From a virus: 64,000 bases of DNA. The stretch's first letter is position 1; each line of letters opens with the position of its first letter. Location: the IMG/VR virus record IMGVR_UViG_3300018080_000123, positions 49,607-113,606 of that record. One strand, 5' to 3'. Shown piece after piece: positions 34,381 through 51,564 of the stretch. The notes beneath the pieces are model-generated. The model was not told the origin of the DNA. It was given only the letters and a program-made list of their open reading frames with translations, and did no database searches. Position numbers and translations under genes: made by a program.

Positions 34381-34388
34381 ATTATACA
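34381..34388 (-). promoter_or_regulatory. -10-only promoter motif TGTATAAT
   Basis: Intergenic, ahead of an AGGAGG SD. Confidence 0.55.
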
Positions 34389-35378
34389 TTAAAAATTTAC
34401 TTCTAAACTCAGAAACAAACTTTTATTGTCGTTGATATCATATCCAATTCCTGGACCCAGATAGGTATTTGGAAAGATATCCAAAGGCCTATACATTATC
34501 GGTTTAAAATTAACTCCAAGATTTTTGATAGATTTGTCAAAGTCTACTCCGATATTGACAAATTTAAACTTCAAATCGTTTTTACTTTTTCCATATCCCG
34601 AAGTCGAGAAAGTTAGGTTTGGCTTTGCTATGAATCCATTTAGATTAGCACCAATATTAGCTCCTAAACCAAAACGAGGAGCCCACCAAATAAATGTATT
34701 CTTTTTAGAATCGTCCTGCTCTGTCGGATCAGTAATTATGATTCCGCCTTTAATGGGTAGCGGATAGGGAATGTCTTTCCAATCTTTAATTTCTCTCTTC
34801 TCTGCAAGCCCGCTTTCCTTGACAACATAAAATGCTTTGGTAAAAACTTTTATCTTTCCAGTCTGCTCGTCTTTAACTTCAAAACTCTTGACCACTATTT
34901 CAAACAAATAATTTCCACTTTCAACACTATGATCTTTTTTAATTAAAACCCAGCCAATTGGCGGGCTATCTTCACCTTGAATTCTAACTTCATTCAAGAA
35001 ATAGCCTCCATCAAGATTAAAAAAACTCCAATCGTCACTTTGCTCGGCTTGCCGAATTTTCTTTTTTAGCTCAAAGGTGGTTTCAGTAATTGACTTAATT
35101 CGACCATTTGCTTCATCAAGAGCTTCTTCAAACTCCTTCTTGACTTCCTCAAAAAGCTCTTTTTGAGTGCGATATCGGCTTTCCAACTTTCCAGTATAGT
35201 CATTAAGCTTTTTGAACTTCTCATCTTTACCGATCAGCTCTTTGTATAGTCTATCTTTCTCTTGTCTGTCTTGAATATAGTTATACGTAAAAATAGCAAC
35301 TAAAATTAACAAAACTCCAATTACTAGGCCTTTAAAATTTCTAACAAGGAGTCTTAACAAAAATTTTAAAAAGTTCAT
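34389..35378 (-). CDS. membrane-anchored coiled-coil protein with C-terminal amphipathic beta strands (spanin-like candidate)
   Basis: N-terminal TM segment, coiled coil, Gly/aromatic strands ending in LFLSLEVNF. Confidence 0.55.
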   Translation of the reverse strand: MNFLKFLLRLLVRNFKGLVIGVLLILVAIFTYNYIQDRQEKDRLYKELIGKDEKFKKLNDYTGKLESRYRTQKELFEEVKKEFEEALDEANGRIKSITETTFELKKKIRQAEQSDDWSFFNLDGGYFLNEVRIQGEDSPPIGWVLIKKDHSVESGNYLFEIVVKSFEVKDEQTGKIKVFTKAFYVVKESGLAEKREIKDWKDIPYPLPIKGGIIITDPTEQDDSKKNTFIWWAPRFGLGANIGANLNGFIAKPNLTFSTSGYGKSKNDLKFKFVNIGVDFDKSIKNLGVNFKPIMYRPLDIFPNTYLGPGIGYDINDNKSLFLSLEVNF

Positions 35379-35695: not shown

Positions 35696-35924
35696 TTTCC
35701 TCTTCCTCTCCGCTCAAATCGGTATGTTTTCTAAAACCATAGAGGGCCCCGATTGATCCTACAACCGTTGCAAAATCGGTTCCAGAAAACTCGCCAAGAG
35801 AAATTCCCTGAATTGTCATTCCCGATAGTAAAAGTTTGATAATTGACACAAAAAAAGCAATAACAAGTAAAGTAAGAGTGACGGACGATTTACTCGTTTT
35901 GGGGTCTCGGATCCACACTTTCAT
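35688..35924 (-). CDS. two-TM holin-like protein
   Basis: KSSVTLTLLVIAFFVSII and FATVVGSIGALYGFRK, charged tail. Confidence 0.45.
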   Translation of the reverse strand: MKVWIRDPKTSKSSVTLTLLVIAFFVSIIKLLLSGMTIQGISLGEFSGTDFATVVGSIGALYGFRKHTDLSGEEEESV

Positions 35925-36522
35925 AGTCTCCCTCCTGATCCCATTCGTTGACAAAATAATCCATTATCGTTTTAGCCATCGGATATTTCTCAAGCAATGG
36001 GCCATAATATTTGTCATTTAATTGACTAATAGTATTCTTATATACCTTGTTAAATTTAGTATTTCCACTACGGCGTTCTTCTGTTAAATAAATTAGCCGC
36101 TCAAGTAAATCTGCAAGATCAATAATTTCTCCCTCTATTCCATCTTTGCAGTTGAGAGTGGCTCGGCGAATATTCTTTTTAGCTTCTCTAGGTAAATGTA
36201 AGAGAGCCTCATCAAATAATTTTGTCTCAATTTGTTTAGTTTTGGCTCGCATTTCATCATCAAAATTTTTTGTAGGAGCAGGGATATCCCCCAGCATAGA
36301 TTCGGGGACATCGTGCCATGCAGCTTTAGAATAGATCGCTAACATATCTAATTTTTCTTCATTCTCTCCTCTTCGCGCATTTTCGCACTCGGCAATAATA
36401 GCAGCCAAACAAATGACAACATGACTATGAGCCGCAACAGACTGAGAACAATTGACTCTATGAGTTGAGTACCTTTTGATATACTGAAGATTAAGCAAAA
36501 TATTAAGTAGTTGATTCTTCAT
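35890..36522 (-). CDS. HD-domain deoxynucleotide phosphohydrolase (YfbR-like)
   Basis: IKRYS, QSVAAHS, WHDVPESMLGDIPAPTK and LADLLE. Confidence 0.85.
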   Translation of the reverse strand: MKNQLLNILLNLQYIKRYSTHRVNCSQSVAAHSHVVICLAAIIAECENARRGENEEKLDMLAIYSKAAWHDVPESMLGDIPAPTKNFDDEMRAKTKQIETKLFDEALLHLPREAKKNIRRATLNCKDGIEGEIIDLADLLERLIYLTEERRSGNTKFNKVYKNTISQLNDKYYGPLLEKYPMAKTIMDYFVNEWDQEGDYESVDPRPQNE

Positions 36523-37231
36523 CGCCCTTTTTTAAAACCTTTCTTTGAATCTTTTTAAATACTTTTGCCGAATCCTTTTCCAACTGTTCTAATTCTCCAT
36601 ACACACTATCAACAACCGCATCGGCCTTATCCCGAAGAACTAGATATCCCTGCTCCGACGGATGGTTATCTTTTCCCTTTTCCTCGGCAACCTCATTTTT
36701 GACATATACCAAATAGAATTCATCTCCAAATGTTTTCTTACAGTGTTCATATTCATTTTCAAATCTCATATCAGTAACAAGATATACCCCCTGAGGTTGA
36801 ACATTTTTGAATGCCATCTCGATATGCCACGTAGGACAAATATGCCTAATAATTTCAGTAGCAACAAATTTAATCACATCTCTATAGGTATTTTTTCCTC
36901 CAACAAAAACGTGCCTATCCCACGAACTCACTGAAATTGAGTATGGATTAATCACATTTTTATTTTTCAAGCGATTGTAAAGGTCTGCTACTTTATGAAT
37001 AATCTGTCTTACGGTTTTAGTGCTTAAAGGAACATTTTTGCTTAAAAAACTATCTTTCTCGTCTCCGTCTATTTGTTCTGCGGTAAACTTAAAAATCTCT
37101 TTCATAATTTCATCTTTAAAGCACCTTGCAAAACAAATTGTTCCAGATGCTCCAAATCGCTCGAGAGCAATCTGTCCTACTGTGTCTTTTCCTGCTCTTT
37201 TCGCCCCTATAAGTCCAATAATTAGTCTCAT
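36503..37231 (-). CDS. deoxynucleoside monophosphate kinase (T4 gp1-like)
   Basis: IIGLIGAKRAGKDT, VTDMRFENE and HPSE. Confidence 0.85.
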   Translation of the reverse strand: MRLIIGLIGAKRAGKDTVGQIALERFGASGTICFARCFKDEIMKEIFKFTAEQIDGDEKDSFLSKNVPLSTKTVRQIIHKVADLYNRLKNKNVINPYSISVSSWDRHVFVGGKNTYRDVIKFVATEIIRHICPTWHIEMAFKNVQPQGVYLVTDMRFENEYEHCKKTFGDEFYLVYVKNEVAEEKGKDNHPSEQGYLVLRDKADAVVDSVYGELEQLEKDSAKVFKKIQRKVLKKGDEESTT

Positions 37232-37247
37232 ATTGTCTCCTACCTCC

Positions 37248-37255
37248 ATTATACA
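37248..37255 (-). promoter_or_regulatory. -10-only promoter motif TGTATAAT
   Basis: Overlaps the dnaE stop codon, ahead of the SD. Confidence 0.5.
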
Positions 37256-40200
37256 ACAATACACTTAATTGAATTGAGAGCTAGTCCAAATTTGCTAGTT
37301 GATCCTACTATTTCAACCATTATACCGGGAACTAACTTATCTTTCACCGCCGGTAGAATATCGCTCCAAACGTAAACTGTTATGACATTATCTCCGTTTT
37401 TGACCTTCACTCGATAAAAATCTTTATCGGTTTTTGTCTTTGCTTTCTGAACAAGGTCGATTAAACCTCCTATGCGAACAGTCTGGTTATCAATAGGAGG
37501 AATTTTAGTATAATCCCCAATTGTTCCCTTTGTAAAAAGAGTATCAAATCTTCTTACCCAATCGGTCCTATAAATTGAAAGAGCATTTTTCTTAAGTTCT
37601 TCAAAAGCGAAGGTATTATCAATATTGTCAAACTTCTTTGGAACGTCTTCTTTTCTCAAAAAATAGAAATGCATGATGAGATCTCTAATGCTTTTCTCTG
37701 GCTCTATATTTCTAAATGTATTCGATAAAATTAAATTTTCAATCACATTCTTCTTTACGGTTCTTTTTTCTATTCGAGTCCAAAAATCCTTGAAACTATT
37801 AAAAGGTCTTTTAGAAATAATCTCTTCAATTGCTTCATCGGCAACTTGGGTAACATAAGCGAGGGGCATAACCAGTTTCTCATTTTCGTTAAGTCTGAAC
37901 TCTTTTTCGCTTTCGTTGATTTCTGGTTCAATTAGAATATCGCGTAAAAAACTGTTCTTATCGTCTTCAACAAACCCCTTAAAGTCATCCGTCGAGCAAT
38001 TCTGGAATACGGATGCCCACCACTCTAACGGATAATAGGTTTTTAGATATTGACATATATATCCTATATACGAATAACAAACAGAATGAGATCTATTGAA
38101 GCAATAGCTCGCGTAGTTTTCCATTTCTTTAAGCAAAGTATGAGCTCCATCCTCGCTCATTGGAGGATTAAGCTGTGTCGTTGCGTAATTAATGAATTGA
38201 TCTTTTGCCTCTTGTTTTAGTCCCCCAGGCTTTGAAATAGCTTTTCTAATATGATTCGATTCTACGGCGGTAAAACCCCCTAAAGACTGAAAAATTCTCA
38301 TGATTTGCTCTTGATAGACCATCAGCCCATATGTATCTTTCAAAATTGGCTCTAAAGCAGGATGAACATAAGTTATTGCCTTTTCTCCTAATTTTCGATC
38401 AACATACTTCTCGTCCATTTTTCCAAGCCTGTATGGTCCCGGTCGACCTATTGCTGTAATAATTGCTAGGTCATTAAACGTATCTGCTTTTGATCTTTCT
38501 AAAAGAGGAGTCGACAAAGCCGTATTAAACTGAAATACTGACTCAGTATCTCCTTTTCTAAACTTGTCTAGAACCTTTTTATCGGTCGGCTCTAAACTAT
38601 AAATATCTAGATCTATATTTCTTCTCAATTTGAGTAATCTAAGACACCCTTGAATATCTCTCAGAGTATTCAGAGATAGAATATCAAACTTGACTAATCC
38701 CGCTTTTTCTAGATATCTTCCATCATATCCAGTCATTGGGGTTGCATCAAGTGCGTTTGGCTTATTTATTACAACCGGAATATAGTCTGTTGGATTTCCA
38801 GGAACAATTACAATCGCGCAAGGATGAACTTTATTAGTCTTGATTTTGCCTGCCATCTTTAACGCTGCTTTGAACACATCTTGATTGGCAACAAAAAATC
38901 CCTGAAGCTCTTCATTCCCCTCGCTAAACAAAAACTCTTCAAACCATTCACGCTCATTAACTCCAGGGCCAGAGGACGGAATGTCTTTAGTAATTGTATT
39001 TATGTATGCATAGTCATAAGCTTCTTTTCGAAGAACCCTGTAAGCATCTTTAATAGCTGTTTTTGTTTTGATGCCCTGCAGAATCCCAACTCTAATTACT
39101 TTATCATGTCCATATTTTTGTCTCAAATAACCAAACACTGATTCCTGATCAGAAAAGTCTAGATCAATATCGGGATAATCAGTTCTACTAATATCAAGAA
39201 ACCTTTCAAACGGCATATCATATTTGATAGGATCTAGTTTAGTAATATCTAATGCATAAGAAAGCAAAGATCCTCCAACAGATCCACGACCTGGCCCAAC
39301 AAGGATATCATTAGCCCTACACCATCGAACAATATCTTCAATAATAAGGAAGTAGTCAGCAAAACCTTTCTCTTTTATTACCGTCAGCTCGAAGTTCAAT
39401 CTTTGAATATATTCATCTCGGATAGGAATTTTCTTATTCTTTTTAACAATAGTAAGTAAGAGGTCCTCAGAGGTCATTTTTTCTTTTGATAAAGGATGGT
39501 CTTCAATAGGAAATCTAACAACCTCAGGCCTTCTTCCTAACTCATATATCTCTACCTTATCTGCTATTTCATTGGAATTCTGAACCGATTGGTTGAATTC
39601 TTCTTTAGTAAAAATCTTATCGTGCCCGTGCTTCTTGAACTCTTCCCAAGATTCTTCAGCGGTCATCAAATAATGATTATCAGTAGCAAAATGCCATCCA
39701 TCTTTTCCTGCAAACGAATTAAGAATAAAGATATCTTGAATCTGCTTATCTTGTTTACTCGGATAATGAACATCCAAAGTATGAATTAGTTTCACATTGT
39801 GTTTGCGGGCCCATTCAATCATCTGTCTATTGTGATCGATTTGAGAATTCTTTTCAGTCTTTTCAAAATTTTTATACTCCCTATTCCACTGCGTACTAAG
39901 ATCAAGCGGCTGAATCTCAGCATAAAAATCATCGCCAAGCTCTTTTTTAAACTCAATGAAGAGCTCTTCGCTTGTGACAGAAGATGCAATGCATGCAGTA
40001 GTAACGATTAGGCCTTCTTTATGATCAAACAGATCTTGAATACTAATCAAAGGCCGGTAGTTGAACGTCTTAAATCCTAACGAAGCAAGCTTCAATAAAT
40101 TAAGATACCCGGCATGGTTCTTAGCAAGAGCAACAATATGTCGTCTTTCAATTTTTTTCTTTGTCTTTTTTTCAGGAAGAAAAAACTTTTCGCACGTATA

Positions 40201-40401
40201 AAACTCAACGCCTAAAACAAGCTTAATATCTTCTGTTTTGCAAGCTTCATGAAAATGGAAAAGGCCACAGGCAGTACCGTGATCGGTAATACCTATGGCC
40301 TTCATCCCGAGTTTCTTAGCTCTTTTTACGTACTCTTCAGGTGTCCCAACTCCGTCGAGGAAAGAATACATAGTGTGAAGGTGTAGCTCAACTCTTTCCA
40401 T
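37249..40401 (-). CDS. dnaE: DNA polymerase III alpha subunit (family C)
   Basis: PHP motifs HLHTMYSFLDG and ITDHG, GPGRGSVGGSL, PDIDLDF, KFDILSL, FNRSHS, C-terminal OB fold. Confidence 0.95.
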   Translation of the reverse strand: MERVELHLHTMYSFLDGVGTPEEYVKRAKKLGMKAIGITDHGTACGLFHFHEACKTEDIKLVLGVEFYTCEKFFLPEKKTKKKIERRHIVALAKNHAGYLNLLKLASLGFKTFNYRPLISIQDLFDHKEGLIVTTACIASSVTSEELFIEFKKELGDDFYAEIQPLDLSTQWNREYKNFEKTEKNSQIDHNRQMIEWARKHNVKLIHTLDVHYPSKQDKQIQDIFILNSFAGKDGWHFATDNHYLMTAEESWEEFKKHGHDKIFTKEEFNQSVQNSNEIADKVEIYELGRRPEVVRFPIEDHPLSKEKMTSEDLLLTIVKKNKKIPIRDEYIQRLNFELTVIKEKGFADYFLIIEDIVRWCRANDILVGPGRGSVGGSLLSYALDITKLDPIKYDMPFERFLDISRTDYPDIDLDFSDQESVFGYLRQKYGHDKVIRVGILQGIKTKTAIKDAYRVLRKEAYDYAYINTITKDIPSSGPGVNEREWFEEFLFSEGNEELQGFFVANQDVFKAALKMAGKIKTNKVHPCAIVIVPGNPTDYIPVVINKPNALDATPMTGYDGRYLEKAGLVKFDILSLNTLRDIQGCLRLLKLRRNIDLDIYSLEPTDKKVLDKFRKGDTESVFQFNTALSTPLLERSKADTFNDLAIITAIGRPGPYRLGKMDEKYVDRKLGEKAITYVHPALEPILKDTYGLMVYQEQIMRIFQSLGGFTAVESNHIRKAISKPGGLKQEAKDQFINYATTQLNPPMSEDGAHTLLKEMENYASYCFNRSHSVCYSYIGYICQYLKTYYPLEWWASVFQNCSTDDFKGFVEDDKNSFLRDILIEPEINESEKEFRLNENEKLVMPLAYVTQVADEAIEEIISKRPFNSFKDFWTRIEKRTVKKNVIENLILSNTFRNIEPEKSIRDLIMHFYFLRKEDVPKKFDNIDNTFAFEELKKNALSIYRTDWVRRFDTLFTKGTIGDYTKIPPIDNQTVRIGGLIDLVQKAKTKTDKDFYRVKVKNGDNVITVYVWSDILPAVKDKLVPGIMVEIVGSTSKFGLALNSIKCIVV

Positions 40402-40412: not shown

Positions 40413-40691
40413 TTATTTGTTCAACAATCCAAGTTTCCTCGCCTGGTAGTTGACGATAGTAACGGTGGATTTGTTGAAACCCTGTCCGATGATATCTGCA
40501 GCAGCTTCACCGGCCAAAAGGCGACGGAGAATGTCAGCTCGCTTTTTCGTAAAACGAACTTTGGTAACATTCCCATTCTTTCGCTCCAACTCGAAAGTCT
40601 TACCAAACCACTCCTCGGCACTCGCCGTGGCGTCGGTATTGGGAGTTTCGACAGTTGCAGCATTCTCAGTCATGTCTAAGGTAGTAGTCAT
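40413..40691 (-). CDS. small putative DNA-binding (HTH) protein
   Basis: RADILRRLLAGEAAADIIGQGFNKSTV; strong SD and two promoter types upstream. Confidence 0.55.
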   Translation of the reverse strand: MTTTLDMTENAATVETPNTDATASAEEWFGKTFELERKNGNVTKVRFTKKRADILRRLLAGEAAADIIGQGFNKSTVTIVNYQARKLGLLNK

Positions 40692-40803: not shown

Positions 40804-41352
40804 TCAACGAGTTAGCCCTAAGATAAACTCATACCAAGATCTTTTGGCTAGCTGTCCTAAGGTGTGATAGAGCTGAGAAACTCCTTTCTGATAGTTGATT
40901 TTGCACTCGCGTCGATACATAATTTCCCCACAATCTACGTCTTTTGTAGCTTTATGGATTACAACCCCAGTCGATGGAAGCTCTAAACGATATGCCTTCT
41001 CTTGAGGATCTTTTCCTTTAAGCTCGGGGAATTTTACTATGTCTCCAGGATGAAGATTATAGATTTTGTACTCGGCACAAATTTCTTCAGGAATAACCCT
41101 CATATATCCCATAAGAAAAATATAGTCGATAGGCATAAACTCTTCAATTCGAACTAAGACTTCTTTATAGTCCTCAAGAGTTGGATTTTTTGGAAGAACA
41201 TAGATTAGATTTGAATTCCAACCGCCTTTCAACAGAGGAGATTTTGCGTTATTTGTAACAAAAACAACTGCGCTAATCCCCAATTCCCATTGGCGATCGG
41301 CTATGTGTTGAGCATCCGAACCTGTGCGCGAGCTAAAAATAACAACATTCAT
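40804..41352 (-). CDS. dpdN: PurN-like formyltransferase, putative dPreQ1 formyltransferase
   Basis: FSSRTGS, LMGYMRVI, YNLHPG and TGVVIH...VDCGEI; last gene of the que/dpdA cluster. Confidence 0.75.
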   Translation of the reverse strand: MNVVIFSSRTGSDAQHIADRQWELGISAVVFVTNNAKSPLLKGGWNSNLIYVLPKNPTLEDYKEVLVRIEEFMPIDYIFLMGYMRVIPEEICAEYKIYNLHPGDIVKFPELKGKDPQEKAYRLELPSTGVVIHKATKDVDCGEIMYRRECKINYQKGVSQLYHTLGQLAKRSWYEFILGLTR

Positions 41353-41353
41353 C

Positions 41354-41890
41354 TCAATCCTCTTTTGATGAAGCAAGCCTCATTAATGAAACCTTACTTA
41401 AAATAAAATCAATTCTCTCATCAATTGTTCCAGCCACTACAAAATGTGGAACATCATATTCATAAAGTAACTTTCGAATTTCATCATCCACCCTTTGTTG
41501 ATACAGCGGGTTCCCCGATCTCTCGGAATCTCCCTCTAATTCAAACGTAATTGGAAAATAGAAGAAAATTGAATCGTCTTTGATTTTGTGATAAAAGTCA
41601 ATCATTTTTTTTTCGTTGCTAAAGTCCCGAATATTTACCTTTGCATAAGCAATACAGTCAAAAACATTGCGCGTAAAATATACCAGCTTATCGTAGTCAA
41701 TAAAATGTTTTTGAATATGAATAGTTAAGTCGTCAATTAAGCTTTGATATTCGGGTTTTCCAATAGGTAGATTTGCTCTAATAACAGGCCGGCTAATCCC
41801 ATCTAAGTATAAATCTCCGGTTCGGTTTGAGATTTCTCTCAACACCGTGGTTTTTCCTGTTCCATGACTTCCTACTGCAAAAATAAACAT
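41354..41890 (-). CDS. P-loop nucleotide kinase (NadR/Ttd14-like)
   Basis: AVGSHGTGKTT, RNVFDCIAY, FELEGDSER and GTIDER. Confidence 0.7.
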   Translation of the reverse strand: MFIFAVGSHGTGKTTVLREISNRTGDLYLDGISRPVIRANLPIGKPEYQSLIDDLTIHIQKHFIDYDKLVYFTRNVFDCIAYAKVNIRDFSNEKKMIDFYHKIKDDSIFFYFPITFELEGDSERSGNPLYQQRVDDEIRKLLYEYDVPHFVVAGTIDERIDFILSKVSLMRLASSKED

Positions 41891-42384
41891 TATCGGTTGT
41901 CTACCTTTTTACAATTGATATTTCTCTGTATTAGTCGATGCTGTCTAAAATTTTCCCACTCGGGACTCCCATTGCAAGAGCTCGAGAAAGGATCAATGCT
42001 AATTCCGCCCCGAGGGAGAAACTCTCCCACCACTTCGATATATCTAGGGTTCATCAGCTTCTTCAAATCTTTCATAATGATATTTACGCAATCCTCATGA
42101 AAATCTCCCTGATTGCGAAACGAAAACAAATACAGCTTTAATGACTTTGATTCGACCATCAATTCATCCGGGACATAGCTGATATAAATCGTAGCAAAAT
42201 CCGGCTGCCCAGTTTTTGGACAAAGAGACGTAAACTCGGGACAATTAAAAGTTACCATATACTCGGTATCTAAATGCTTATTCCGAAACGTCTCTAGAAC
42301 TTCAGGATTATACTTATCAGAATATTTTACATTCTGATTCCCTAGTAAGTTCACACCCTCCAATTCTTTGTCATTCCTCGACAT
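41890..42384 (-). CDS. queF: preQ0 reductase, type I QueF
   Basis: [13 protein letters not shown], QueF motif [19 protein letters not shown] and PRGGI. Confidence 0.93.
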
Positions 42385-43228
42385 TTCTTTTCTCCTGTGC
42401 AACGAGGTACTTAAATACCTCTATATTATACAAGATGCATTGCATTTGCCTAATCGTAAGCTTAACGTCAAGGTTATTGGCTAAAAGATCTTTTTTCTTC
42501 TTTCCCCTCAATCCAAAAAGATAGCTAATTTTCATGTCAAAATATCCATGAATGATAGGACAGCTTGTATCCACAGATACAATAAAGTCGTATCTATTTC
42601 CATCCCTATATTTGATAAACTCGATAGGATCGCTACATCCAAGAAGATGATGGTGTTTCTCTCTGTTAATAAGCCCTTTTTCAATAAGTCGATTGATTAG
42701 TTTATGCCGCGCTTCAACAAAGCGAAGAACTTCTTTGCCATATTTTGGAATAAGTTCATCATCATAAAACAAAACATCATATGGAATAGCAATAACGCTA
42801 ACACCGGGATTATTAACTAATGTAGAATAACAATCAAAGTATTCTTGTTCGGTTTTTCCCTGAGCAACTGCGATGATTTTATACTCTAATCTCTCTTCCT
42901 TCATTCGAGCAATAAAATTTTCAACGCTTGCAACTGTAGCAGGTCCATTATGTAAAACATCTGGAGGAACGATATGAGTAGGATTAATCATTCTTGCGTA
43001 CTTTAAAAGAAAATCAGCAGTAACAGACTCTCCCAACTCAAAAACACTATTATCAAGGAAAATTATTCGTCCTTTTTTTGCTCTGTCAATATAAAACTGC
43101 AAATACTCCGGATCCCGCTCGCACATATGAACTAAGCAATAATCAAAATCATTGAATGTCAAAGAAGGTCCAAAGAGCATTTTCGGGCACTCATGAGAAA
43201 CTAGCAACCTGTCATTTGTCTTTTTCAC
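42371..43228 (-). CDS. dpdA: TGT-fold 7-deazaguanine DNA transglycosylase (DpdA, probably DpdA3-type)
   Basis: [25 protein letters not shown] and SVDTS match TGT catalytic motifs; lies between folE2 and queF. Confidence 0.75.
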
Positions 43229-44048
43229 GAAAATTCCTTTCTAATGTTGCAATAGCATTACACTGATGAATGCTCTCATCGTGGTCGGCTGTTACTTGGT
43301 AGTAGTCGATCTTATCCCCCATCTCATCTAAAACAACAGCAATCTTACGAACCATATCCTCGACAAATCCAGGATTATCATAGGCCCTCTCTGTGACATA
43401 TTTTTCGTCAGGCCTTTTGAGAGTATTCCAAATTGGACAGCTTCCAGCTTGTTCAATTATCTGAGCAAGATCTTCAATCCAAATAAAATTTTTCATATCT
43501 TTAAAGCGAATCTTAATGGTTCCGGTCGACCTTTGATTATGAGCCCCGTGCCCCGCTCCGTTTCCATTAGAACTCATTTCTTTGCTACAAGGACAAAGAG
43601 ACGTGTACATAACACTGACGCTCAAAAAAAGATCCTTTTCTCCGTTTTCTAATACGCCTTCGAAATGACAATCGTAGTAAAAATGAGACTCTTCTCCGCT
43701 AACTGGAGCTTTCTTTTTAACAAAATATGGAAAATCAATTCGAATCTTTGAATCAGTCTGCTGAAGCTGATCTCGACATGCGTCAACCATATCATTAACA
43801 AGATCGCTATCAAGCAACTTCTTCTCAAGCGCTCTTTCAATGACTTGAGAAAACCGACTCATATTGACCCCGCGACTTTCTGTACTAAGATCAACAGCAA
43901 GAGAAACAGTTCCCACAGTCGTCGTAACTCCCTCCCCTTTTGTTTTTACGCTAAACGGAATTTTATAATTACGAATTCCCACCCAGTTAATCTTTTTGTC
44001 ATATTTGTCTTTTGAATTTTGAATATCTGGTAAATTTTGACTATTCAT
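43212..44048 (-). CDS. folE2: GTP cyclohydrolase IB
   Basis: LPDIQ, RGVNMSRF, TSLCPCSKE, GAHNQRS, LKRPDEK, FVEDMVR and ESIH. Confidence 0.93.
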   Translation of the reverse strand: MNSQNLPDIQNSKDKYDKKINWVGIRNYKIPFSVKTKGEGVTTTVGTVSLAVDLSTESRGVNMSRFSQVIERALEKKLLDSDLVNDMVDACRDQLQQTDSKIRIDFPYFVKKKAPVSGEESHFYYDCHFEGVLENGEKDLFLSVSVMYTSLCPCSKEMSSNGNGAGHGAHNQRSTGTIKIRFKDMKNFIWIEDLAQIIEQAGSCPIWNTLKRPDEKYVTERAYDNPGFVEDMVRKIAVVLDEMGDKIDYYQVTADHDESIHQCNAIATLERNFREKDK

Positions 44049-44469
44049 CTTTTTCCCTCGGGATTAAAATAGTTTCGGTTGGGAAAACAATCCAGTCGCT
44101 CGTCTCTCGAACGAAAAGATACTTGCTTGTTTTAGCGCAATCATCTTGTTTATATAGTGCAGCAAAAAAACAGAAATTTATACAATTAATTTTTTTTTCA
44201 ATTGTCCGAAAAGTCTCTCCGGTACAGAAGACATCATCTACTATCAAAGCATTACTTAGCTTAGAAGGCCAACAACTCTTATCAACCATTGATAGCCCAA
44301 CAACATTCTCTATTTCAAAAAGCTTTGATAAATATCCAGCGATAGGAAGTCCGCCGCGCGAAACTCCAACAATCTTATCAAACTCAAGATCTTTGACTTT
44401 CCACGCTAACTGAACGCATAAACTGTCAAACTCTCCCCAATCTAATCTATATTCTCTTCTACTCCTCAT
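44041..44469 (-). CDS. type I phosphoribosyltransferase (Gpt-like)
   Basis: IVGVSRGGLP, PRPP loop LIVDDVFCTGET, and WIVFP. Confidence 0.8.
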   Translation of the reverse strand: MRSRREYRLDWGEFDSLCVQLAWKVKDLEFDKIVGVSRGGLPIAGYLSKLFEIENVVGLSMVDKSCWPSKLSNALIVDDVFCTGETFRTIEKKINCINFCFFAALYKQDDCAKTSKYLFVRETSDWIVFPTETILIPREKDE

Positions 44470-45178
44470 TTTTACACTCCCAGTAAAACTTTTGAGCCGC
44501 CATCCATTCATCAAGCGTTAACAGAGGGTCTTGAACTCTATTGTCAATAAAAACTTCAGTTCGCTCCGTACACGTTCCACATTTCAAACAAGGTCTGTTT
44601 TCGCCCCTATAACACGACCACGTTGTCGAATAGTCAACCCCAAGATCAAGCCCAACCTCGCCCACTTGACTTTTTGTCATATTCTGAAACGGCCTAAGAA
44701 ACTCTACTCCTCTAAAGGTTCCAGCCTTGGCGGCTTGTTCAAAAGCAATATTGAAATCTGGACGACAATCTGGATAAATAGCATGATCTCCGGCGTGAGA
44801 TCCAAGAGCGACATAATCGGCTTCCACGCTGTCAGCAATTCCAACAAGATTTGACAACATAATCCCATTCCTGAACGGAATGACGGTCTGTTTCATGCTT
44901 TCTTGATCATACAATCCTTCAGGAATCTCTCCCCCGCTCTTTAAAAGATCTGACTTAAACAAACCATTGATATAGCTAATATCGATGGTCTGATGAGGGA
45001 TATTTAGTTTATCGCAATGCCATTTTGCAAGTGGTAACTCCTTCTCATTATGCTTTGAATTCATGAAGAATGAATAAGCCTTAAGATCATACTCTTGATC
45101 ATGAAGATAATAAAGCAAAGTTACGGAATCCATTCCTCCTGAAATGCTAATGATAGCACTTTTCTTCTTGTTTGACAT
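44459..45178 (-). CDS. queC: 7-cyano-7-deazaguanine synthase
   Basis: SISGGMDS, PFRNGI, YPDCR, and TWSCY...CLKCGTC. Confidence 0.95.
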   Translation of the reverse strand: MSNKKKSAIISISGGMDSVTLLYYLHDQEYDLKAYSFFMNSKHNEKELPLAKWHCDKLNIPHQTIDISYINGLFKSDLLKSGGEIPEGLYDQESMKQTVIPFRNGIMLSNLVGIADSVEADYVALGSHAGDHAIYPDCRPDFNIAFEQAAKAGTFRGVEFLRPFQNMTKSQVGEVGLDLGVDYSTTWSCYRGENRPCLKCGTCTERTEVFIDNRVQDPLLTLDEWMAAQKFYWECKNEE

Positions 45179-45179
45179 T

Positions 45180-45914
45180 CTATACTCCTTTTTTTGATCC
45201 GTAGAGCCAAATATGGGCTCTCGTAGCGAAATTCCACCCAGCTCTTTTGCAAAGCTCAATAACCCAACTGGCTCTCTCCTTGAGCTGTTCATCGGTAATT
45301 CCTTGAGGCATCAGCCATATCTTGTCATCAGGAATACCGAAATCTCCCTGAAAGTCAACAATTTCTGATAAATCAGAAAAGTTATGCATGACAAATTTTA
45401 CCTGGTAGTCGACCCCATCGGCTAAAAAACTATTAATTACTTGATCAATCAATCTCCTTGCTTTCCAACAAGCCGAATTGCTTGACTCTAATTTTGGTGA
45501 AAGTGAAATAAATTGAGCCTTAGAAGGCCAATAAATTGTTCCATTAGTCTCAACCGTTATATAGTGCCCGTCTTCAACTAAAACATTAATTAAGTCAGCA
45601 ACAGACTTTTGCACGTATGGTTCGCCGCCCGTAACTACAACATGTTTACATTTGAACCTTTTAACTTTTTCAACAATCTCTTCTATTGTAACAAGATTTT
45701 TTTCTGGATTCCAACTACTGTGAGGAGTGTCGCACACAGTAAATGATCCGTCACTATTTTTCCACTTACATCTAAGATTACAGCCGCTTGTACGAATAAA
45801 TACAGAAGGGACACCGGTATATTTTCCTTCGCCTTGAATTGAATAGAAAATTCCCCCATCCCCCTCTTTGGTCAAATTAATTTTTTTGTCAAGGCGACTA
45901 TCTCTATTTTTCAT
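45180..45914 (-). CDS. queE: 7-carboxy-7-deazaguanine synthase (radical SAM)
   Basis: FYSIQGEG, FIRTSGCNLRC-x11-CDT, VTGGEP, ETNGT and SPK. Confidence 0.92.
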   Translation of the reverse strand: MKNRDSRLDKKINLTKEGDGGIFYSIQGEGKYTGVPSVFIRTSGCNLRCKWKNSDGSFTVCDTPHSSWNPEKNLVTIEEIVEKVKRFKCKHVVVTGGEPYVQKSVADLINVLVEDGHYITVETNGTIYWPSKAQFISLSPKLESSNSACWKARRLIDQVINSFLADGVDYQVKFVMHNFSDLSEIVDFQGDFGIPDDKIWLMPQGITDEQLKERASWVIELCKRAGWNFATRAHIWLYGSKKGV

Positions 45915-46464
45915 TGAATGCTATCTCTCTTACTAAAATGAAGTCATTAACAGTTTGATTCCAAGCCCTCTCATTCTGATTATACAGGAGATATGCTGGA
46001 TGAAAGACTGGAACAATTTTGCATTGGATCCCGCTATAATAAGCGTTAAAAACCTTACCTCTTGATTTTGTAATACGTTGAAAATAGCCCCCCAGCAAAC
46101 ATTGGCTCGCAATTCTCCCAACTGTTACAATGACTTTTGGAGCGACTGCTTTAATTTGTTGCTCTAACCAATCAGCGCACGCTCTCACCTCATCGAGTTC
46201 AGGATCCCTGTTGTTAGGAGGCCTACACTTCACAATATTAGTAACATAAATGTTGTCATTTAAATTAAGTTGTGCTTGTTCCAATATCTTTTCTAAAACC
46301 TGCCCCGCTTTTCCCACAAACGGGAGTCCGGTTCTGTCCTCATCTGCTCCGGGGGCTTCTCCGATCAACATAATTCGAGACTCCAGTTTTCCTCGCGAAA
46401 CTACTACCTGAGTCCGCCCTAAACAAAGCTTACATCTTCGGCAATTTTTTAGATGATCAAACAC
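45904..46464 (-). CDS. family-4 uracil-DNA glycosylase (4Fe-4S)
   Basis: CRRCKLC, IGEAPGADED, PFVGKAG, VKCRPPNNR and HPAY. Confidence 0.9.
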   Translation of the reverse strand: MFDHLKNCRRCKLCLGRTQVVVSRGKLESRIMLIGEAPGADEDRTGLPFVGKAGQVLEKILEQAQLNLNDNIYVTNIVKCRPPNNRDPELDEVRACADWLEQQIKAVAPKVIVTVGRIASQCLLGGYFQRITKSRGKVFNAYYSGIQCKIVPVFHPAYLLYNQNERAWNQTVNDFILVREIAFNEK

Positions 46465-46873
46465 TCAAATCCTCTATTGTAGCATAACTATTCGCCGTTT
46501 CCCATAATCGAACTTTTTTAAGATTAACCGCGTCTGGTAGGCGGACCCATATTCTCTTCCAAAAGTCTTGAACCATATTTTCGCAAGTGGTTATATAAGG
46601 AAGTTCTTGGTTGAGAAACCTGTGATCGCACTCGCTAACAATCTCTTCTTGAATAATGCTCTTTAAATCTTTAAAATTAATAACAAAACCGTTTTCATCC
46701 ACCGGACCGATAACAGTAACCTCTAAAGTATAAGTATGTCCGTGTCCAACACAATCCTTATCCCTATAGCAAGCTCCATATATCTCTTGATTCTGCTTTT
46801 CGGTCAGATGATCATTCCAAAGCTTATGTCCGGCCTCGAACTGAACAATTTTAGTAACCGAAACTCTTTTCAC
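46457..46873 (-). CDS. queD: 6-carboxytetrahydropterin synthase
   Basis: FEAGHKL, GHGHTY, DHRFLN, TTCEN and RLWET. Confidence 0.88.
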   Translation of the reverse strand: MKRVSVTKIVQFEAGHKLWNDHLTEKQNQEIYGACYRDKDCVGHGHTYTLEVTVIGPVDENGFVINFKDLKSIIQEEIVSECDHRFLNQELPYITTCENMVQDFWKRIWVRLPDAVNLKKVRLWETANSYATIEDLSV

Positions 46874-47088
46874 GCTTCCCCCTTTCTAGCCCAACGTCTC
46901 CTATTAAACAAAACATGTCGAGCTGCTTCGACATCTTCATCCGTAAACCAAGTGTTGGAATTCGTCTCTGCTTGCCAAATCATCCACTTTAAATAGCCGC
47001 TAGAAACAAATTTAAAAGGGGTTCCTCTGTGCCTACCAAACTCTAAAAAATGATCTACGTAGCGATTCCCCTTTTTACGTTTATTCAT
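46870..47088 (-). CDS. small ExoX C-terminal/DUF3820-like protein
   Basis: FGRHRGTPF...GYLKWM. Confidence 0.55.
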   Translation of the reverse strand: MNKRKKGNRYVDHFLEFGRHRGTPFKFVSSGYLKWMIWQAETNSNTWFTDEDVEAARHVLFNRRRWARKGEA

Positions 47089-47096
47089 AATTTCTC

Positions 47097-47642
47097 CTAA
47101 TAATTACTCCAATCAATATCACTAAGATTATAGTAAATCAGCGACTTTGAATTTCCTTCCTCATCCTTATAATGATCTTTATACACGCCTGGAAGGCGTT
47201 TTTGAGTCATAATTCTCTTTCCGATATTAATCAAAAGGCATTTGACGTACATATAGATGTAAGTAGATTTTTTTCCAATCTTCAAAAGTTCTTCATCGAC
47301 AAATTTCTTCAGCTCTTTGATATCATCAACCGAGTCAATATATCGGTTAAGCTCTTCTTTCTTTTCAAGAGCCCGACGCGACCTCCTAATATATCCTTTT
47401 GCACTTTCTCTCAAAGAATCGATACAACACTCCTCTCGACACCTTTCTTTGTTCTTGAGTCTTTCGGCAGTGTGTCTCTCGCAATCTAATAGAGCGCGGA
47501 CAAGAAATAAATTACACTCTTGGATTAAATCCCTTTTTTCCATTGCAAGCAAATGGAGATTATGAATTTTTTGTTTGTTGACCAGGTCATAAACAAAATC
47601 CCTGTACTTCATAAACTCTTCGGTTAGCTGTTTATTATCCAT
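47097..47642 (-). CDS. sigma region-2-only factor (putative phage sigma)
   Basis: RDLIQECNLFLVRA resembles sigma 2.2 EDLIQEGNIGLIRA; KSTYIYMYVK resembles 2.3 FSTYATWWIR; no region 4. Confidence 0.55.
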   Translation of the reverse strand: MDNKQLTEEFMKYRDFVYDLVNKQKIHNLHLLAMEKRDLIQECNLFLVRALLDCERHTAERLKNKERCREECCIDSLRESAKGYIRRSRRALEKKEELNRYIDSVDDIKELKKFVDEELLKIGKKSTYIYMYVKCLLINIGKRIMTQKRLPGVYKDHYKDEEGNSKSLIYYNLSDIDWSNY

Positions 47643-47662
47643 AATGTCCTCCCTCACTCTAA

Positions 47663-48655
47663 TTATAGCTTATAATAATTATAAGTGCAAGCACTTTTTG
47701 CAAAATTAACTATTTCTTCCGGAGAGAAGTCCCCAGGATCTCTGCCGTCTGGGAATCTAATAACAAAAATGTCGTAAAAAGGGGCAAGTATTTTTGCCGT
47801 TTCATCTATCGCTTCAATAGCATCAGAATCTAAAGCTACAATAACAGTTTCAAGATTGGGAATCTCTCTAATCAATCGAAGCTGATATTCAGATAAAATA
47901 CTTCCAAACTGAGCGACTGCATTGATCCGATGAGCTTTAATTGCATCTACAGGGCCTTCAACAATAGTAACCAGCTTTTTATCTCTTACATTATCATAAT
48001 TGAAAAGAGCCTTAGACTTTTGAAACCCTTTTGATGTTAGAGCTTTTGGATATTTAGAATCGGCTTTCCACCTATTAGTAATATCTCTTCCTTGATATCC
48101 GACAATCTTGTCATACATTTTTACAGGAAAAATAACTCTTTTCATTTCTGGACAATATCTCAGATCAAATTTTCTTGCTAGATCTTTATTAATTCCTCGC
48201 GATTCTAAATAGAGAAACCCTTCTCTATTTGCCCTGTGCGATCTCTCAAAATCGTAGAAATTATATGGCAAAATAATTTCCGGTAAAGTCTCAAGCTTAA
48301 TTTTTTTGTCTTTGCTACTATAGGGGTCTTTCAACTCACCACTTAGGACAACTGGAAGCTTTTTTCGTTTTCCAACAATTTTATAGAAAGCTTGCCAATA
48401 TGTAGTGTTGTCTATATAGGCTACAAGATGAGCTAAATTTTGTCCAATTCCGAATCTACAGCTCTTCCTAAAACACTGAAATTGTTTTGTATCTTGATTA
48501 ACGTAAAACTTTTTTGATCTTCCGCACTTGGGGCATTTTTCAAATATGAGTTGAGATCCATTTTCTTCAAATTCAATTCCATTGTCAACAAGAAAGCCTT
48601 TTAAATCAAAGCTAGAGCATCTTTTCAAAAAGTATTGATATTTATGATCACTCAT
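47663..48655 (-). CDS. dnaG: DNA primase
   Basis: Zn finger CPKC...CFRKSC, YLESRGI, YQGRD, Toprim IVEGPVDA and LDSD. Confidence 0.88.
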   Translation of the reverse strand: MSDHKYQYFLKRCSSFDLKGFLVDNGIEFEENGSQLIFEKCPKCGRSKKFYVNQDTKQFQCFRKSCRFGIGQNLAHLVAYIDNTTYWQAFYKIVGKRKKLPVVLSGELKDPYSSKDKKIKLETLPEIILPYNFYDFERSHRANREGFLYLESRGINKDLARKFDLRYCPEMKRVIFPVKMYDKIVGYQGRDITNRWKADSKYPKALTSKGFQKSKALFNYDNVRDKKLVTIVEGPVDAIKAHRINAVAQFGSILSEYQLRLIREIPNLETVIVALDSDAIEAIDETAKILAPFYDIFVIRFPDGRDPGDFSPEEIVNFAKSACTYNYYKL

Positions 48656-49973
48656 ACTTTGCATCTATTTCCTCCAAAGTCACTTCTGTTTGCATCAATT
48701 CTGGATCATGAGTGATGATTCTCGACATATTCATTTCGCATAAAACTAGCTTTCCAGTCCTTCCGTCTCTTTGCTTATCAAGGCATAAAACAAATTGACC
48801 CTCTTTGTATGGGTTAATTGTAAAAATAGTCTCCGATACTTGAGCTATCCCAATACACTCGCTCACACTAACAGAGCGAACAATCTTAAAACTATGGGAT
48901 TGTTTATGTCCTTCTCTATTAAATTGAGCTGCAGTAAGAATAGCAATATCCAATTCGGCCGACATTAGATCAAACGTATCCCACACCTCTTGTTGATTGT
49001 GTCTTTTTTCTGAATATCTTTTTCGAGGATTAAGCTTCTGACCATAATCACACACCAACATATCACAGGGGAATTCTTTCATCTTAAACTTTACATAATC
49101 GTACACGTCTTCTACGCTTACACCTACTTTTCTCATTGGTTTAATAATGATATGATCACTTAAAAATTTTCTGGCCTTATCAATAAGCACCTTTTCTTCA
49201 GAAGAAGGCGGGCTTGAAATAATTTTGTTATATGGAATAAGAGTAACTCGGCTAAGGAAACGAGAAAGAATTTGCTCCCTCCGCCCCTCATGAAATATGA
49301 ATATCACCTTTTTTCCTACTCTAGCAGCATGATAGGCACAATTAATCAGCATCGAGGTTTTGTAAGAATTATAGCCGCCAATGATAGTCGTCACCGACTG
49401 TTTCGGAATTCCTCCTTCTAGATATTGATCGAAGATAGGAATTCCAATCGGAATCTTATTTACATTAATATGTCTAACCTTATCAAGAATAGAATAGATT
49501 TCGCTCACCTCAATTATATCATCTTTAACAAAATCAACCTGTCTAATCTCATTAATTTGATTTTGAGTATAGCTGTAGGCTTTTTCAAACTGAGCATTAT
49601 TAAACAAATTAGCAGAAGCCGAATGCGCAATTTTGAATCTATTTAACCGAATAAAATCTGTCAGCTTTGTCTTAATGTACTCTTTATTTTTAACATCTGC
49701 ATCGGCAACCGCTATAACAAGAGCCCGATAGTTTTCTCTTTCTTCTGGAACTACTTTGTTAAGCTCTTCTTTGAGAAACACGTTTGAAGGGAGCGCGTTC
49801 CATTGTTCATAGTATCTTTTGATAGTATTGAACACCCAAGAAAGATAGACATTCTCGAAGTAAGAATCCTGTAAATAGGTGATTGCTTTGCTACAAAAAT
49901 ACTCCTCTGTTAACATCAACCTAAGGATTGATCGTTGAAAATCTTTAGTAAATGGAAACTTCGCTTCGGACAT
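48648..49973 (-). CDS. dnaB: DnaB-like replicative helicase
   Basis: Variant Walker A GGYNSYKT, FHEG, VCDY, AAQFNRE and DKQRDG. Confidence 0.85.
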   Translation of the reverse strand: MSEAKFPFTKDFQRSILRLMLTEEYFCSKAITYLQDSYFENVYLSWVFNTIKRYYEQWNALPSNVFLKEELNKVVPEERENYRALVIAVADADVKNKEYIKTKLTDFIRLNRFKIAHSASANLFNNAQFEKAYSYTQNQINEIRQVDFVKDDIIEVSEIYSILDKVRHINVNKIPIGIPIFDQYLEGGIPKQSVTTIIGGYNSYKTSMLINCAYHAARVGKKVIFIFHEGRREQILSRFLSRVTLIPYNKIISSPPSSEEKVLIDKARKFLSDHIIIKPMRKVGVSVEDVYDYVKFKMKEFPCDMLVCDYGQKLNPRKRYSEKRHNQQEVWDTFDLMSAELDIAILTAAQFNREGHKQSHSFKIVRSVSVSECIGIAQVSETIFTINPYKEGQFVLCLDKQRDGRTGKLVLCEMNMSRIITHDPELMQTEVTLEEIDAKYE

Positions 49974-49974
49974 A

Positions 49975-51564
49975 TTAATCGACCTCTGCTACGCTTCCGC
50001 CACATGTGGCCAGCAGTCCTGCAATACTAAGAGCATTGATAAGAGCTGACCTCACGACTTTAACCGGATCAATAATTCCATCTTTCATCATGTCAACTAT
50101 TTCATGAGATTTTGCATTATACCCGCTCTCATATTCTTCTTTGATCTGCGGAACGATTAAATCAGGGGCCCTTCCGGTATTTAAAATGATTGTTCGGATA
50201 GGAGCCTGTAAGGCGATATTCAGAATCTTTCCTCCGTAACTATCATAATCAAGCGTTTCTCGCGCACGATACAGGGCCATTCCACCCCCAGGAACAACCC
50301 CCTCACTAATTGCCGCTCTCGTAGCGTTTAAGGCATCCTCAACTCGATCCTTCTTTTCTTTCACTTCAATCTTTGTCGCCCCTCCAACACTAATAACTGC
50401 CATTCCATTGCTAAGTCCAGCAATACGTCCGCTAATTCTATCTTTGTCAAACTCAGAGAAAGCGTTTTTTCTAAGCTCTTTAAGAGAGTCAACCCTCTTT
50501 AAAATAGTTTCTTCGTCTCCACTTCCACCGTAGATGGTTGTAAAAAATCTTCCAGCAACTACTTTATCCGCGCACCCAATATCTTCAAGTGTGGCTGCTT
50601 CAAGAGATTTTCCCGCCTCCCCCAGAACATTGGCACCAACCATAATAGCAATATCTTCTAACATCAAAGCTCTCTGATCGGTAGCGTCAGGAGATTTAAT
50701 ACAGGCAACCTGAAGCCCTTGCATTCTTTTATTCAAAACCAACCAATTCAAAGCATCTCCAACAATATCGTTAGCAATAATAAACATCTTCATGCTCATA
50801 TCGGGAGGATCCCCCACGATCTTCTGAACAATGGGAACAATCTGGCTGAAACTACTTATTACACCATTGTAAACAATAATTGCTGGTTTTGTCAAAATAG
50901 CTTCTGCAGTTTCAGGGTTTGTTTGAAAATAATGATACCCAATTAATCCTCTAGCAATCTGAAAACCGTCAACCGTCCGTAAATTTGTCTCCCGAGAAAC
51001 GCCTTCCTCGACAACAATAACTCCGTCCTCTCCAACGGTTTCGATTGCTTCGTTGATAATTTGTCCAATCTCTATATTATTGTTAGCAGAGATTTTTCCT
51101 ACATTGATAATCTCTTCTCTGGTTTCAACTTTTTTTGCATGATCAATCAAATTATCCAAAACGGCTTTTGCCTGTAGTTGAATCTGATCAAACAAATTTT
51201 GAGGCTCTTCTCCAATTTCAATGTACTTGAGGGCTTCGTTAAAGATAGCTTCTGCAAGGACAATGGCAGTTGTTGTCCCATCTCCTGCCTCGTGATTGGT
51301 TTTTCGTGCTACATCTTTAATAGCCTGAAGAGCATTATTCTCATGAACTTCCTCAAACCTCTTGATATATTCAGCGACCGTTACTCCGTCTTTCGTCACT
51401 AAGGGGTTTAAAGGGCGACCCGAAGGATCTTGGCCCTCGCGCTGGAGAATAATTGGGAGTCCGCCAGGTCCAAGGGTTCTCTTAACCATTCGAGCAAGCT
51501 TATTAATCCCATCTCTAAGGCTTGTTCGAAGTTCTTTTCCATCTAAAACATCTGTATGTCTCAT
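49975..51564 (-). CDS. groEL: chaperonin GroEL
   Basis: TLGPGG, TKDGVTVA, AGDGTTTA, EKKDRVEDALNATRAA, GVVPGGG and GIIDP; no GGM tail. Confidence 0.95.
   Translation of the reverse strand: MRHTDVLDGKELRTSLRDGINKLARMVKRTLGPGGLPIILQREGQDPSGRPLNPLVTKDGVTVAEYIKRFEEVHENNALQAIKDVARKTNHEAGDGTTTAIVLAEAIFNEALKYIEIGEEPQNLFDQIQLQAKAVLDNLIDHAKKVETREEIINVGKISANNNIEIGQIINEAIETVGEDGVIVVEEGVSRETNLRTVDGFQIARGLIGYHYFQTNPETAEAILTKPAIIVYNGVISSFSQIVPIVQKIVGDPPDMSMKMFIIANDIVGDALNWLVLNKRMQGLQVACIKSPDATDQRALMLEDIAIMVGANVLGEAGKSLEAATLEDIGCADKVVAGRFFTTIYGGSGDEETILKRVDSLKELRKNAFSEFDKDRISGRIAGLSNGMAVISVGGATKIEVKEKKDRVEDALNATRAAISEGVVPGGGMALYRARETLDYDSYGGKILNIALQAPIRTIILNTGRAPDLIVPQIKEEYESGYNAKSHEIVDMMKDGIIDPVKVVRSALINALSIAGLLATCGGSVAEVD

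Follow-up and report, generated by a model that had tools for sequence, protein, structure and literature searches.

The virus record IMGVR_UViG_3300018080_000123 of IMG/VR is 113,606 bp long, has direct terminal repeats of 123 bp and a G+C content of 39.8%, and is rated 100% complete. We analyzed its bases 49607–113606, a stretch of 64,000 nucleotides that we call the window. At positions 40804–46873 of the window, an earlier note made from the sequence alone had described a contiguous ten-gene cluster for 7-deazaguanine modification, and had proposed that the genome carries formyl-preQ1 (fdPreQ1) in its DNA. All ten genes are present there, contiguous and on the minus strand. In the order of transcription, they are as follows.

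46457–46873, minus strand: QueD-like 6-carboxytetrahydropterin synthase of the PTPS fold (PF01242, 4.7e-28; role assigned from context)
45904–46464, minus strand: family-4 uracil-DNA glycosylase (UDG), inserted between queD and queE (TIGR00758, 195 bits; cut-off 125)
45180–45914, minus strand: QueE, radical-SAM 7-carboxy-7-deazaguanine synthase (phrog_2076, 1.2e-51)
44459–45178, minus strand: QueC, preQ0 synthase (TIGR00364, 154.4 bits, cut-off 150.3; PF06508, 5e-50)
44041–44469, minus strand: 6-oxopurine (Gpt/Hpt-like) type-I phosphoribosyltransferase (PRTase; family profile against the purine PRTase 1vdm, 5.7e-28)
43212–44048, minus strand: FolE2, GTP cyclohydrolase IB (NF010200, 261.7 bits, cut-off 215; PF02649, 2e-80)
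42371–43228, minus strand: DpdA3-type guanine transglycosylase (phrog_19058, 1e-39; no Pfam hit and a faint hit to the DpdA model NF041059)
41890–42384, minus strand: QueF, one-domain NADPH-dependent preQ0 reductase (TIGR03139, 170 bits; cut-off 86.9)
41354–41890, minus strand: Kin, a P-loop nucleoside/nucleotide kinase (PF13521 AAA_28, 2.6e-9)
40804–41352, minus strand: DpdN-type, PurN-like formyltransferase (PF00551 Formyl_trans_N, 2.6e-14)

Families were assigned by Pfam, NCBIfam and PHROG scans, with the curated or equivalog cut-offs of NCBIfam as thresholds; FolE2, QueC, QueF and the UDG score above these cut-offs. The longest open reading frames (ORFs) of QueC, the PRTase, QueF and DpdN probably begin too far upstream, and the true starts are probably internal ATGs, most likely at 45178, 44469, 42384 and 41352, respectively. 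The longest ORFs of QueC, QueF and DpdN extend to 45292, 42402 and 41376, and an AAGGAG lies upstream of the ATG at 45178. For the transglycosylase, a comparison with homologues indicated that the public 269-aa call is N-terminally short, and that a start at the GTG at 43228 brings back the conserved 'VSHExP' N-terminus. When the likely internal starts are used, the junctions between the ten genes range from -17 to +1 nt, and a Shine-Dalgarno-like purine run precedes most of the starts. The cluster looks like one translationally packed unit. A sigma-70 promoter scan gave hits at the level of the shuffled sequence, and terminator-like hairpins numbered 13 versus 4.2 in the shuffle, with none that clearly bounds the operon.

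Enzymes of the preQ1 pathway

The five enzymes of the preQ1 pathway, FolE2, the QueD-like PTPS, QueE, QueC and QueF, form what is probably a complete set, and would convert GTP to the free preQ1 base. QueF retains the catalytic Cys in 'SLCPKTG' and the NADPH motif 'ESKSLKLY' in addition to exceeding the TIGR03139 cut-off, in agreement with the earlier description of it as a reductase rather than a QueF-L. It differs from the QueF of the relatives, which is a two-domain protein of ~300 aa. The annotated relatives immuto, phiST and BSTP12 have FolE of type I, and FolE2 was found in only one of 81 related viral loci, a set composed of 80 viral loci and that of the Flavobacterium phage immuto.

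The QueD-like protein has a Cys-to-HGH spacing (GAC...DCVGHGH) that departs from the bacterial CxxxHGH motif. The Cys spacing of QueE is CX3C-X11-C, and related phage QueEs carry inserts of ~7 to >40 residues at the same place; inserts shorter than that of the window at the Cys motif also occur among them.

After 1vdm, the next matches of the PRTase profile are GpT, HPRT and XGPRT, and the protein has an intact phosphoribosyl pyrophosphate (PRPP) motif, 'LIVDDVFCTGET', and a C-terminal 'WIVFP'. Homologues occur in immuto (4.8e-40) and in 15 of the 81 loci. The UDG contains the motifs GEAPG and HPA together with several Cys residues, as in the family-4 Fe-S UDGs. Since no UDG homologue was found within 10 kb of DpdA3 in the 81 loci, this gene lies outside the conserved module.

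The transglycosylase, the formyltransferase and the predicted DNA base

The transglycosylase is 285 aa long, as compared with ~370–390 aa for tRNA-guanine transglycosylases (TGTs). Its AlphaFold (AF2) model, with a predicted local distance difference test (pLDDT) of 90.4, displays a TGT-type TIM barrel, and the fifty best Foldseek matches in the PDB were all TGT or ArcTGT (E values of 4e-9 to 1e-7; query-based TM-scores, TMq, of 0.5–0.6). The objection foreseen in the earlier note, a missing TIM barrel, therefore does not arise. A search with the Pfam TGT model PF01702 gave no hit at E <= 0.01; the same model also missed the DpdA1/2 genes of 9g, Dp-1, CAjan and Rosebush, of which NF041059 caught only 9g and CAjan.

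A tblastn search with DpdA against all phage records matched 31 of them, mostly CP220-like Campylobacter phages, immuto and phiST-like Cellulophaga phages, together with some Bacillus and other phages. The first three correspond to the groups with DpdA3 in Cui 2023. Similarly, a hidden Markov model (HMM) of the family matched immuto (2e-121), CP220 (2.5e-85) and phiST (3.5e-21), and gave only 1.7–4.5 bits with the DpdA1 proteins of 9g and CAjan. In a maximum-likelihood tree of DpdA3-type proteins, rooted on phiST/BSTP12, the window DpdA and five metagenomic proteins branch deeply and fall outside the large clade of immuto, CP220 and marine sequences. The position between phiST/BSTP12 and the immuto/CP220 clade means that the window protein is bracketed by three phages with complete replacement of G. 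By these sequence comparisons, the transglycosylase belongs to the DpdA3 subfamily, and groups neither with TGT nor with DpdA1.

Bacterial TGT employs two catalytic aspartates, and its C-terminal Zn site consists of three Cys and one His. Three aspartates, D59 (LDNS), D90 (PDVL) and D220 (SVDTS), are invariant in 13 DpdA3 sequences, while C133 is the single invariant Cys in the family alignment. DpdA3 therefore lacks a conserved four-residue Zn site of the TGT type. The family is large, with 5069 representative clusters at 50% identity (E <= 1e-3) and members on more than 580 IMG/VR contigs. The closest relatives of the window DpdA (P0002–P0007) share 40–87% identity with it; an IMG/VR scan with the single DpdA protein and a scan of metagenome contigs with the window-clade alignment found only relatives of ~41% identity or less. 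Other long forms of DpdA3 end in a C-terminal NUMOD3 motif (P0030) or DUF3310 (P0137).

The formyltransferase retains the catalytic residues that the earlier note had recognized, in 'YNLHPGD' and 'VDCGEI'. The Asn-His-Asp triad (N107, H109 and D148), aligned to the PurN motifs, is invariant in 22 sequences. Its best cultured match, at 35.8% identity, is YP_010114479.1 of immuto, which has been named DpdN and predicted to be a formyltransferase (Cui 2023, PMC10516641). One could argue that the window protein is an ordinary PurN of purine synthesis, encoded by an auxiliary metabolic gene of the kind found in cyanophages, in which case the DNA would contain unformylated dPreQ1. Indeed, its nearest solved structures are glycinamide ribonucleotide (GAR) transformylases, and the PurN of cyanophage P-SSM7 matches it at 26% identity. 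We regard this explanation as improbable, because the protein scores only 44.2 bits on the PurN equivalog TIGR00639, against a cut-off of 150.1, whereas an HMM of DpdN built without it gives the window protein 136 bits and three PurN controls only 45–56 bits. The segment 'YPELKGKDPQ', whose 'PELKGKDPQ' is a DpdN-specific signature, stands where PurN has 'SLLPxFxG', and a tree splits DpdN from the three PurNs with 100% SH-aLRT support, the window protein being basal on a long branch. The genetic linkage points in the same direction: the formyltransferase is encoded in the same operon as dpdA, of the 30 viral loci with DpdN, most have dpdN directly after dpdA3, and natural DpdA3–DpdN fusions exist (P0048 and P0069, 447 aa each). 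Moreover, immuto, which has the same pair, contains fdPreQ1 only and no dPreQ1 (Cui 2023, PMC10516641). Sequence comparison thus places the formyltransferase in the DpdN clade, and not with PurN.

A role of the cluster in RNA, as a boost of queuosine precursors or as a modification of host or phage tRNA that tunes translation, is very improbable in our view. Phage Que genes without DpdA were formerly interpreted in this manner (PMC6884629). However, the transglycosylase of the window has no Pfam TGT match and falls in DpdA3, the characterised members of which accompany fully modified DNA. Queuosine synthesis has no place for a formyltransferase, and the surroundings of the operon are a replication/recombination module.

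Given this gene set, we consider it likely that the phage DNA carries fdPreQ1, probably in place of most or all G. The preQ1 base would be made from GTP by the five enzymes, the DpdA3-family transglycosylase would swap guanine for the 7-deazaguanine, and the folate-dependent formyltransferase of the DpdN family would add, presumably after insertion, a formyl group to the aminomethyl group. The Gpt-like PRTase would most simply salvage the released guanine to GMP, thereby feeding GTP back into the pathway. The enzyme set, the membership in DpdA3 and DpdN, and the match with immuto all support, by homology, the fdPreQ1 DNA that had been proposed for this genome.

The system is already known from immuto, and the window is a deep-branching further example. 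The DNA of immuto contains 345,000 fdPreQ1 per 10^6 nt and no dG (Cui 2023, NAR 51:9214, PMC10516641). The two phages share QueD, QueE, QueC, QueF, a GTP cyclohydrolase, DpdA3, DpdN, the Gpt-like PRTase and Kin. Their DpdA proteins are 38.7% identical, and those of Campylobacter phages reach ~40%. Nevertheless, the parts are often not the same. Immuto uses FolE type I in place of FolE2, and a two-domain QueF of 306 aa in place of the one-domain QueF of 170 aa, while the PTPS-II-like QueD and the inserted family-4 UDG are peculiar to the window. The gene order is dpdA-queF-kin-dpdN in the window and dpdA-dpdN-kin-queF in immuto, and the replicase is a Pol III alpha in the former and a Pol A in the latter. 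There is no nucleotide similarity between the two, and the DpdA3 and DpdN of the window represent basal lineages.

As for the extent of replacement, immuto, CP220 and phiST have 100% of G replaced, and dG is not detectable in their DNA (PMC10516641, Table 1 and Discussion). Campylobacter phage CP220 (Firehammervirus) has a DpdA3 that is ~39% identical to that of the window, with 40% for its CP21-type relatives, and resembles the window in the Kin homologue immediately downstream of DpdA3 and in a phosphohydrolase gene alongside; it has no QueF and no DpdN. Its pathway stops at 7-carboxy-7-deazaguanine (CDG), and its DNA contains 100% 2'-deoxy-7-amido-7-deazaguanosine (dADG) (Cui 2023, PMC10516641). 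Cellulophaga phage phiST, which combines DpdA3 with DpdL, is more distant (25% identity in DpdA3). Pol III alpha follows its cluster, as in the window, and genes of the nucleotide pool, MazG and a P-loop ORF, lie beside DpdA3, but its product is 7-deazaguanine (100% dDG), and it has no QueC, QueF, DpdN or detectable Kin. The phages with DpdA1 or DpdA2 (9g with dG+, CAjan with dPreQ0 and Dp-1 with dPreQ1) and the bacterial DpdA–DpdB systems also feed a TGT-fold DNA transglycosylase from the same preQ0 pathway; in the DpdA1/DpdA2 systems, the replacement is partial, at 0.1–30% of G (Cui 2023, PMC10516641).

The frequencies of restriction sites are compatible with a protective role of the modification. 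Observed and Markov-expected counts are 490 and 494 for GATC, 51 and 43 for GAATTC, 87 and 81 for AAGCTT, and 53 and 52 for AGATCT. The sites that had seemed plentiful by eye therefore occur at the Markov expectation, with observed/expected ratios of ~1. Across the 64 six-base palindromes, z averages -0.08, as compared with 0.0 for non-palindromes. The absence of depletion in G-containing palindromes is what protection by modification would permit, although by itself this is weak evidence.

Several points weigh against fdPreQ1 as the product. The activity of DpdN is a prediction for every member, that of immuto included, and expression of DpdA3 in E. coli yielded no activity (Cui 2023, PMC10516641). 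The DpdA3 and DpdN of the window are the most basal of their clades, at 36–40% identity to the characterised members, and with such divergence, differences in the substrate or the acyl group are possible. Two pathway assignments score below the NCBIfam cut-offs. The QueD-like protein reaches 66.6 against 89.25 for QueD; its nearest solved relatives are the mammalian-type PTPS 3i2b/1b66 (~1e-19), with E. coli QueD 4ntm at 1.5e-4, and by sequence it is closer to PTPS-II than to bacterial QueD. QueE is matched by five NCBIfam QueE models at 1e-19 to 1e-25, all under the cut-off (best 88 bits). Finally, the published post-replicative scheme assigns no role to the tightly linked kinase gene.

A kinase that accompanies DpdA3

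In iterative profile searches started from the window kinase, a Kin homologue was found in 77 of the 81 loci, nearly always directly after dpdA3 or dpdN and often with overlapping stop and start codons. The commonest architecture, dpdA3-kin-queF, occurs in 36 loci. Immuto (8e-61) and CP220 (6e-49) both have a homologue, the latter being the 'thymidylate kinase' gp057 that adjoins its DpdA3. In CP220 (L083, NC_027997.1:53542-56035 and 5419-5928), a fusion of an HD phosphohydrolase and a P-loop domain lies upstream of DpdA3 and the Kin homologue downstream, and a second Kin copy (4e-28) is encoded elsewhere in the genome. No Kin homologue was detected in the partial-replacement phages 9g, CAjan, Dp-1 and Rosebush, in searches in which the positive controls were detected, nor was one detectable in phiST. 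The candidate gp041 of phiST was rejected as a homologue, as hhalign aligned the P-loop only, with a probability of 1%. In a second, more divergent sample, Kin was present in only 21 of the 44 loci with enough flanking sequence.

The nearest match of the Kin profile is the ribosylnicotinamide-kinase domain of NadR (1lw7), with which it shares VDDGxRS, followed by deoxynucleoside and TMP kinases. The AF2 model (pLDDT 86) is nearest to Mycoplasma deoxyadenosine kinase (2jat/2jas), NadR, YorR and TMP kinases (TMPKs), with 8puu, 6gyf and 3kb2 also among the fold matches. The family features are a Walker A motif, a DR motif and a lid of the DDGxRS type, from which the window copy deviates (TR for DR, and GDSERS). 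From its sequence and predicted fold, Kin is a small-molecule kinase with a deoxynucleoside-kinase/NadR-like fold. Bacterial DpdA needs the ParB-like ATPase DpdB, and the fold of Kin led us to reject it as a DpdB-like ATPase. A prediction of a DpdA3–Kin complex scored 0.01, which is evidence neither for nor against an interaction.

Other genes were found beside DpdA3. In the QueC-type, QueF-less DpdA3 clade, a gene for a ~167-aa protein lies just upstream of dpdA3, often overlapping it (L144:9501-10004, L147:6739-7251, L128:251-754 and 13 more loci; alignment A6). The protein has no Pfam match, and shows a conserved NYNxFRWWR and a C-terminal RGRP(K/R)K AT-hook; possibly it binds DNA as a partner of DpdA3. 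A relationship of this family to Kin was rejected, the two being unrelated. In the viral contig L092 (11367-12326), a gene of the IMPDH/GMP-reductase family (PF00478, 3e-56) follows dpdA3-dpdN, at the usual place of the kinase.

Three further genes with a bearing on nucleotide metabolism or replication lie downstream of the cluster.

37249–40401, minus strand: DNA polymerase III alpha-type replicase (PHP, DNA_pol3_alpha, finger and HHH_6 domains; context)
36503–37264, minus strand: T4 gp1-like deoxynucleoside monophosphate (dNMP) kinase (PF21448 DNMK, 1.1e-8; context)
35890–36522, minus strand: YfbR-like HD-domain 5'-deoxynucleotidase (PF12917, 1.1e-30; context)

The genes of the dNMP kinase and the 5'-deoxynucleotidase are 3 kb downstream of the cluster. 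The combination of a gp1-like dNMP kinase with another nucleoside/nucleotide kinase and an HD nucleotidase near modification genes recalls T4 (hmdCMP and the gp1 dNMP kinase) and S-2L (PurZ/DatZ/MazZ), but no enzyme of the window is known to make a modified mononucleotide, and the resemblance is only a lead.

These observations raise the question of whether the same product might be reached at the level of nucleosides or nucleotides, before replication. In such a route, a deoxyguanosine compound would be the substrate on which DpdA3 exchanges the base, or else the deaza base would receive its ribose from the PRTase; phosphorylation of the product would fall to Kin and the gp1-like dNMP kinase; DpdN would act on a 5'-phosphorylated aminomethyl compound, formylating it as PurN does GAR; Pol III alpha would incorporate the modified dNTP; and the YfbR-like 5'-deoxynucleotidase would drain dGMP. 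We consider this possible, if doubtful. The presence of Kin, whose sequence and fold mark it as a small-molecule kinase (NadR ribosylnicotinamide kinase, deoxyadenosine kinase and TMPK), directly after DpdA3 or DpdN in the 77 loci, immuto's among them, and likewise in CP220, favors it, as does its absence from the partial-replacement phages. However, phiST replaces all of its G by dDG with no detectable Kin homologue, and Kin is found in less than half of the second sample. The QueC-type DpdA3 clade pairs with the RGRP AT-hook protein instead, suggesting action at the DNA level there. The dNMP kinase and the HD 5'-deoxynucleotidase lie close by, and beside DpdA3, CP220 has its HD and P-loop gene and phiST a MazG gene, but the dNMP kinase and the HD enzyme of the window are not conserved near DpdA3 elsewhere, and no ribonucleotide reductase (RNR), MazG, ThyA or ThyX was found in the phage genome.

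The enzymes themselves can also be read in both ways. DpdN keeps a loop, 'SQTGSE', aligned to the PurN loop for the phosphate of GAR, but a DNA 5'-phosphate could fit this loop equally well. The PRTase is equally explained as a salvage enzyme for the guanine freed by transglycosylation. The lack of a conserved TGT-type Zn site in DpdA3 speaks for the route, whereas no TGT-family or TGT-fold enzyme is known to act on mononucleotides or nucleosides, which counts against it. On the side of the literature, a modified-dGTP route has been proposed for Campylobacter phages (Hutinet 2019, PMC6884629), and the ADG nucleoside was seen in infected cells (PMC10516641). Tentatively, then, complete replacement in the DpdA3 branch, which includes this phage, immuto, CP220 and hundreds of marine contigs, might not be purely post-replicative, and might depend on a joint action of DpdA3 and Kin. 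If so, DpdA3 would be the first TGT-fold enzyme that acts on a mononucleotide or nucleoside, and the route would explain why DpdA3 alone is inactive in E. coli.

Genome context and significance

The megablast comparison of the 6-kb cluster with 50,697 phage records returned zero nucleotide matches, and the replicase has only ~30% identity to that of any cultured phage. The phage is an uncultured, distinct lineage. Among public sequencing runs, only a sediment metagenome, probably the source, contains the sequence in full, and no RNA run with it was listed. The replication/recombination module around the cluster extends over 47663–51564 and 29035–34389, and includes a DnaG-type primase, a DnaB-type helicase, a GroEL-like chaperonin, a gp32-like single-stranded DNA-binding protein (SSB), a RecA/UvsX-like protein and an Mre11/Rad50-like pair. 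GroES/GroEL genes are also located near the immuto cluster. The small ORFs that flank the cluster at 40413–40691, 46870–47088 and 47097–47657 (92, 72 and 186 aa) match no Pfam family, and none of the 81 related loci has a homologue of them.

Over the whole genome, some four-base palindromes are under-represented (observed/expected: GTAC 142/207, CATG 221/276, CTAG 227/278 and TATA 559/673; z from -3.7 to -5.9). The plus strand contains more C than G (26,720 versus 18,462), because nearly all of the genes are on the minus strand.

A canonical base is rarely replaced in full, and there is a single cultured phage in which fdPreQ1 has been measured. The present genome adds a complete and deeply divergent second DpdA3/DpdN lineage, and its non-orthologous parts, FolE2, the one-domain QueF and the PTPS-II-like QueD, help to define which components of the system are essential. 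Both restriction-resistant DNA and sequencing chemistry lend interest to enzymes that produce fully deaza-substituted DNA. Our analysis also exposes a kinase that travels with DpdA3 yet is absent from the published pathway. The words kinase and PRTase do not occur in Cui 2023 (PMC10516641), although immuto carries homologues of both, and the literature that we searched is otherwise silent on the kinase. Kin offers a specific candidate for the 'other unknown enzymes' that were invoked after DpdA3 failed in E. coli, and its association with DpdA3 makes the question of whether these phages modify their guanines before or after replication a testable one.

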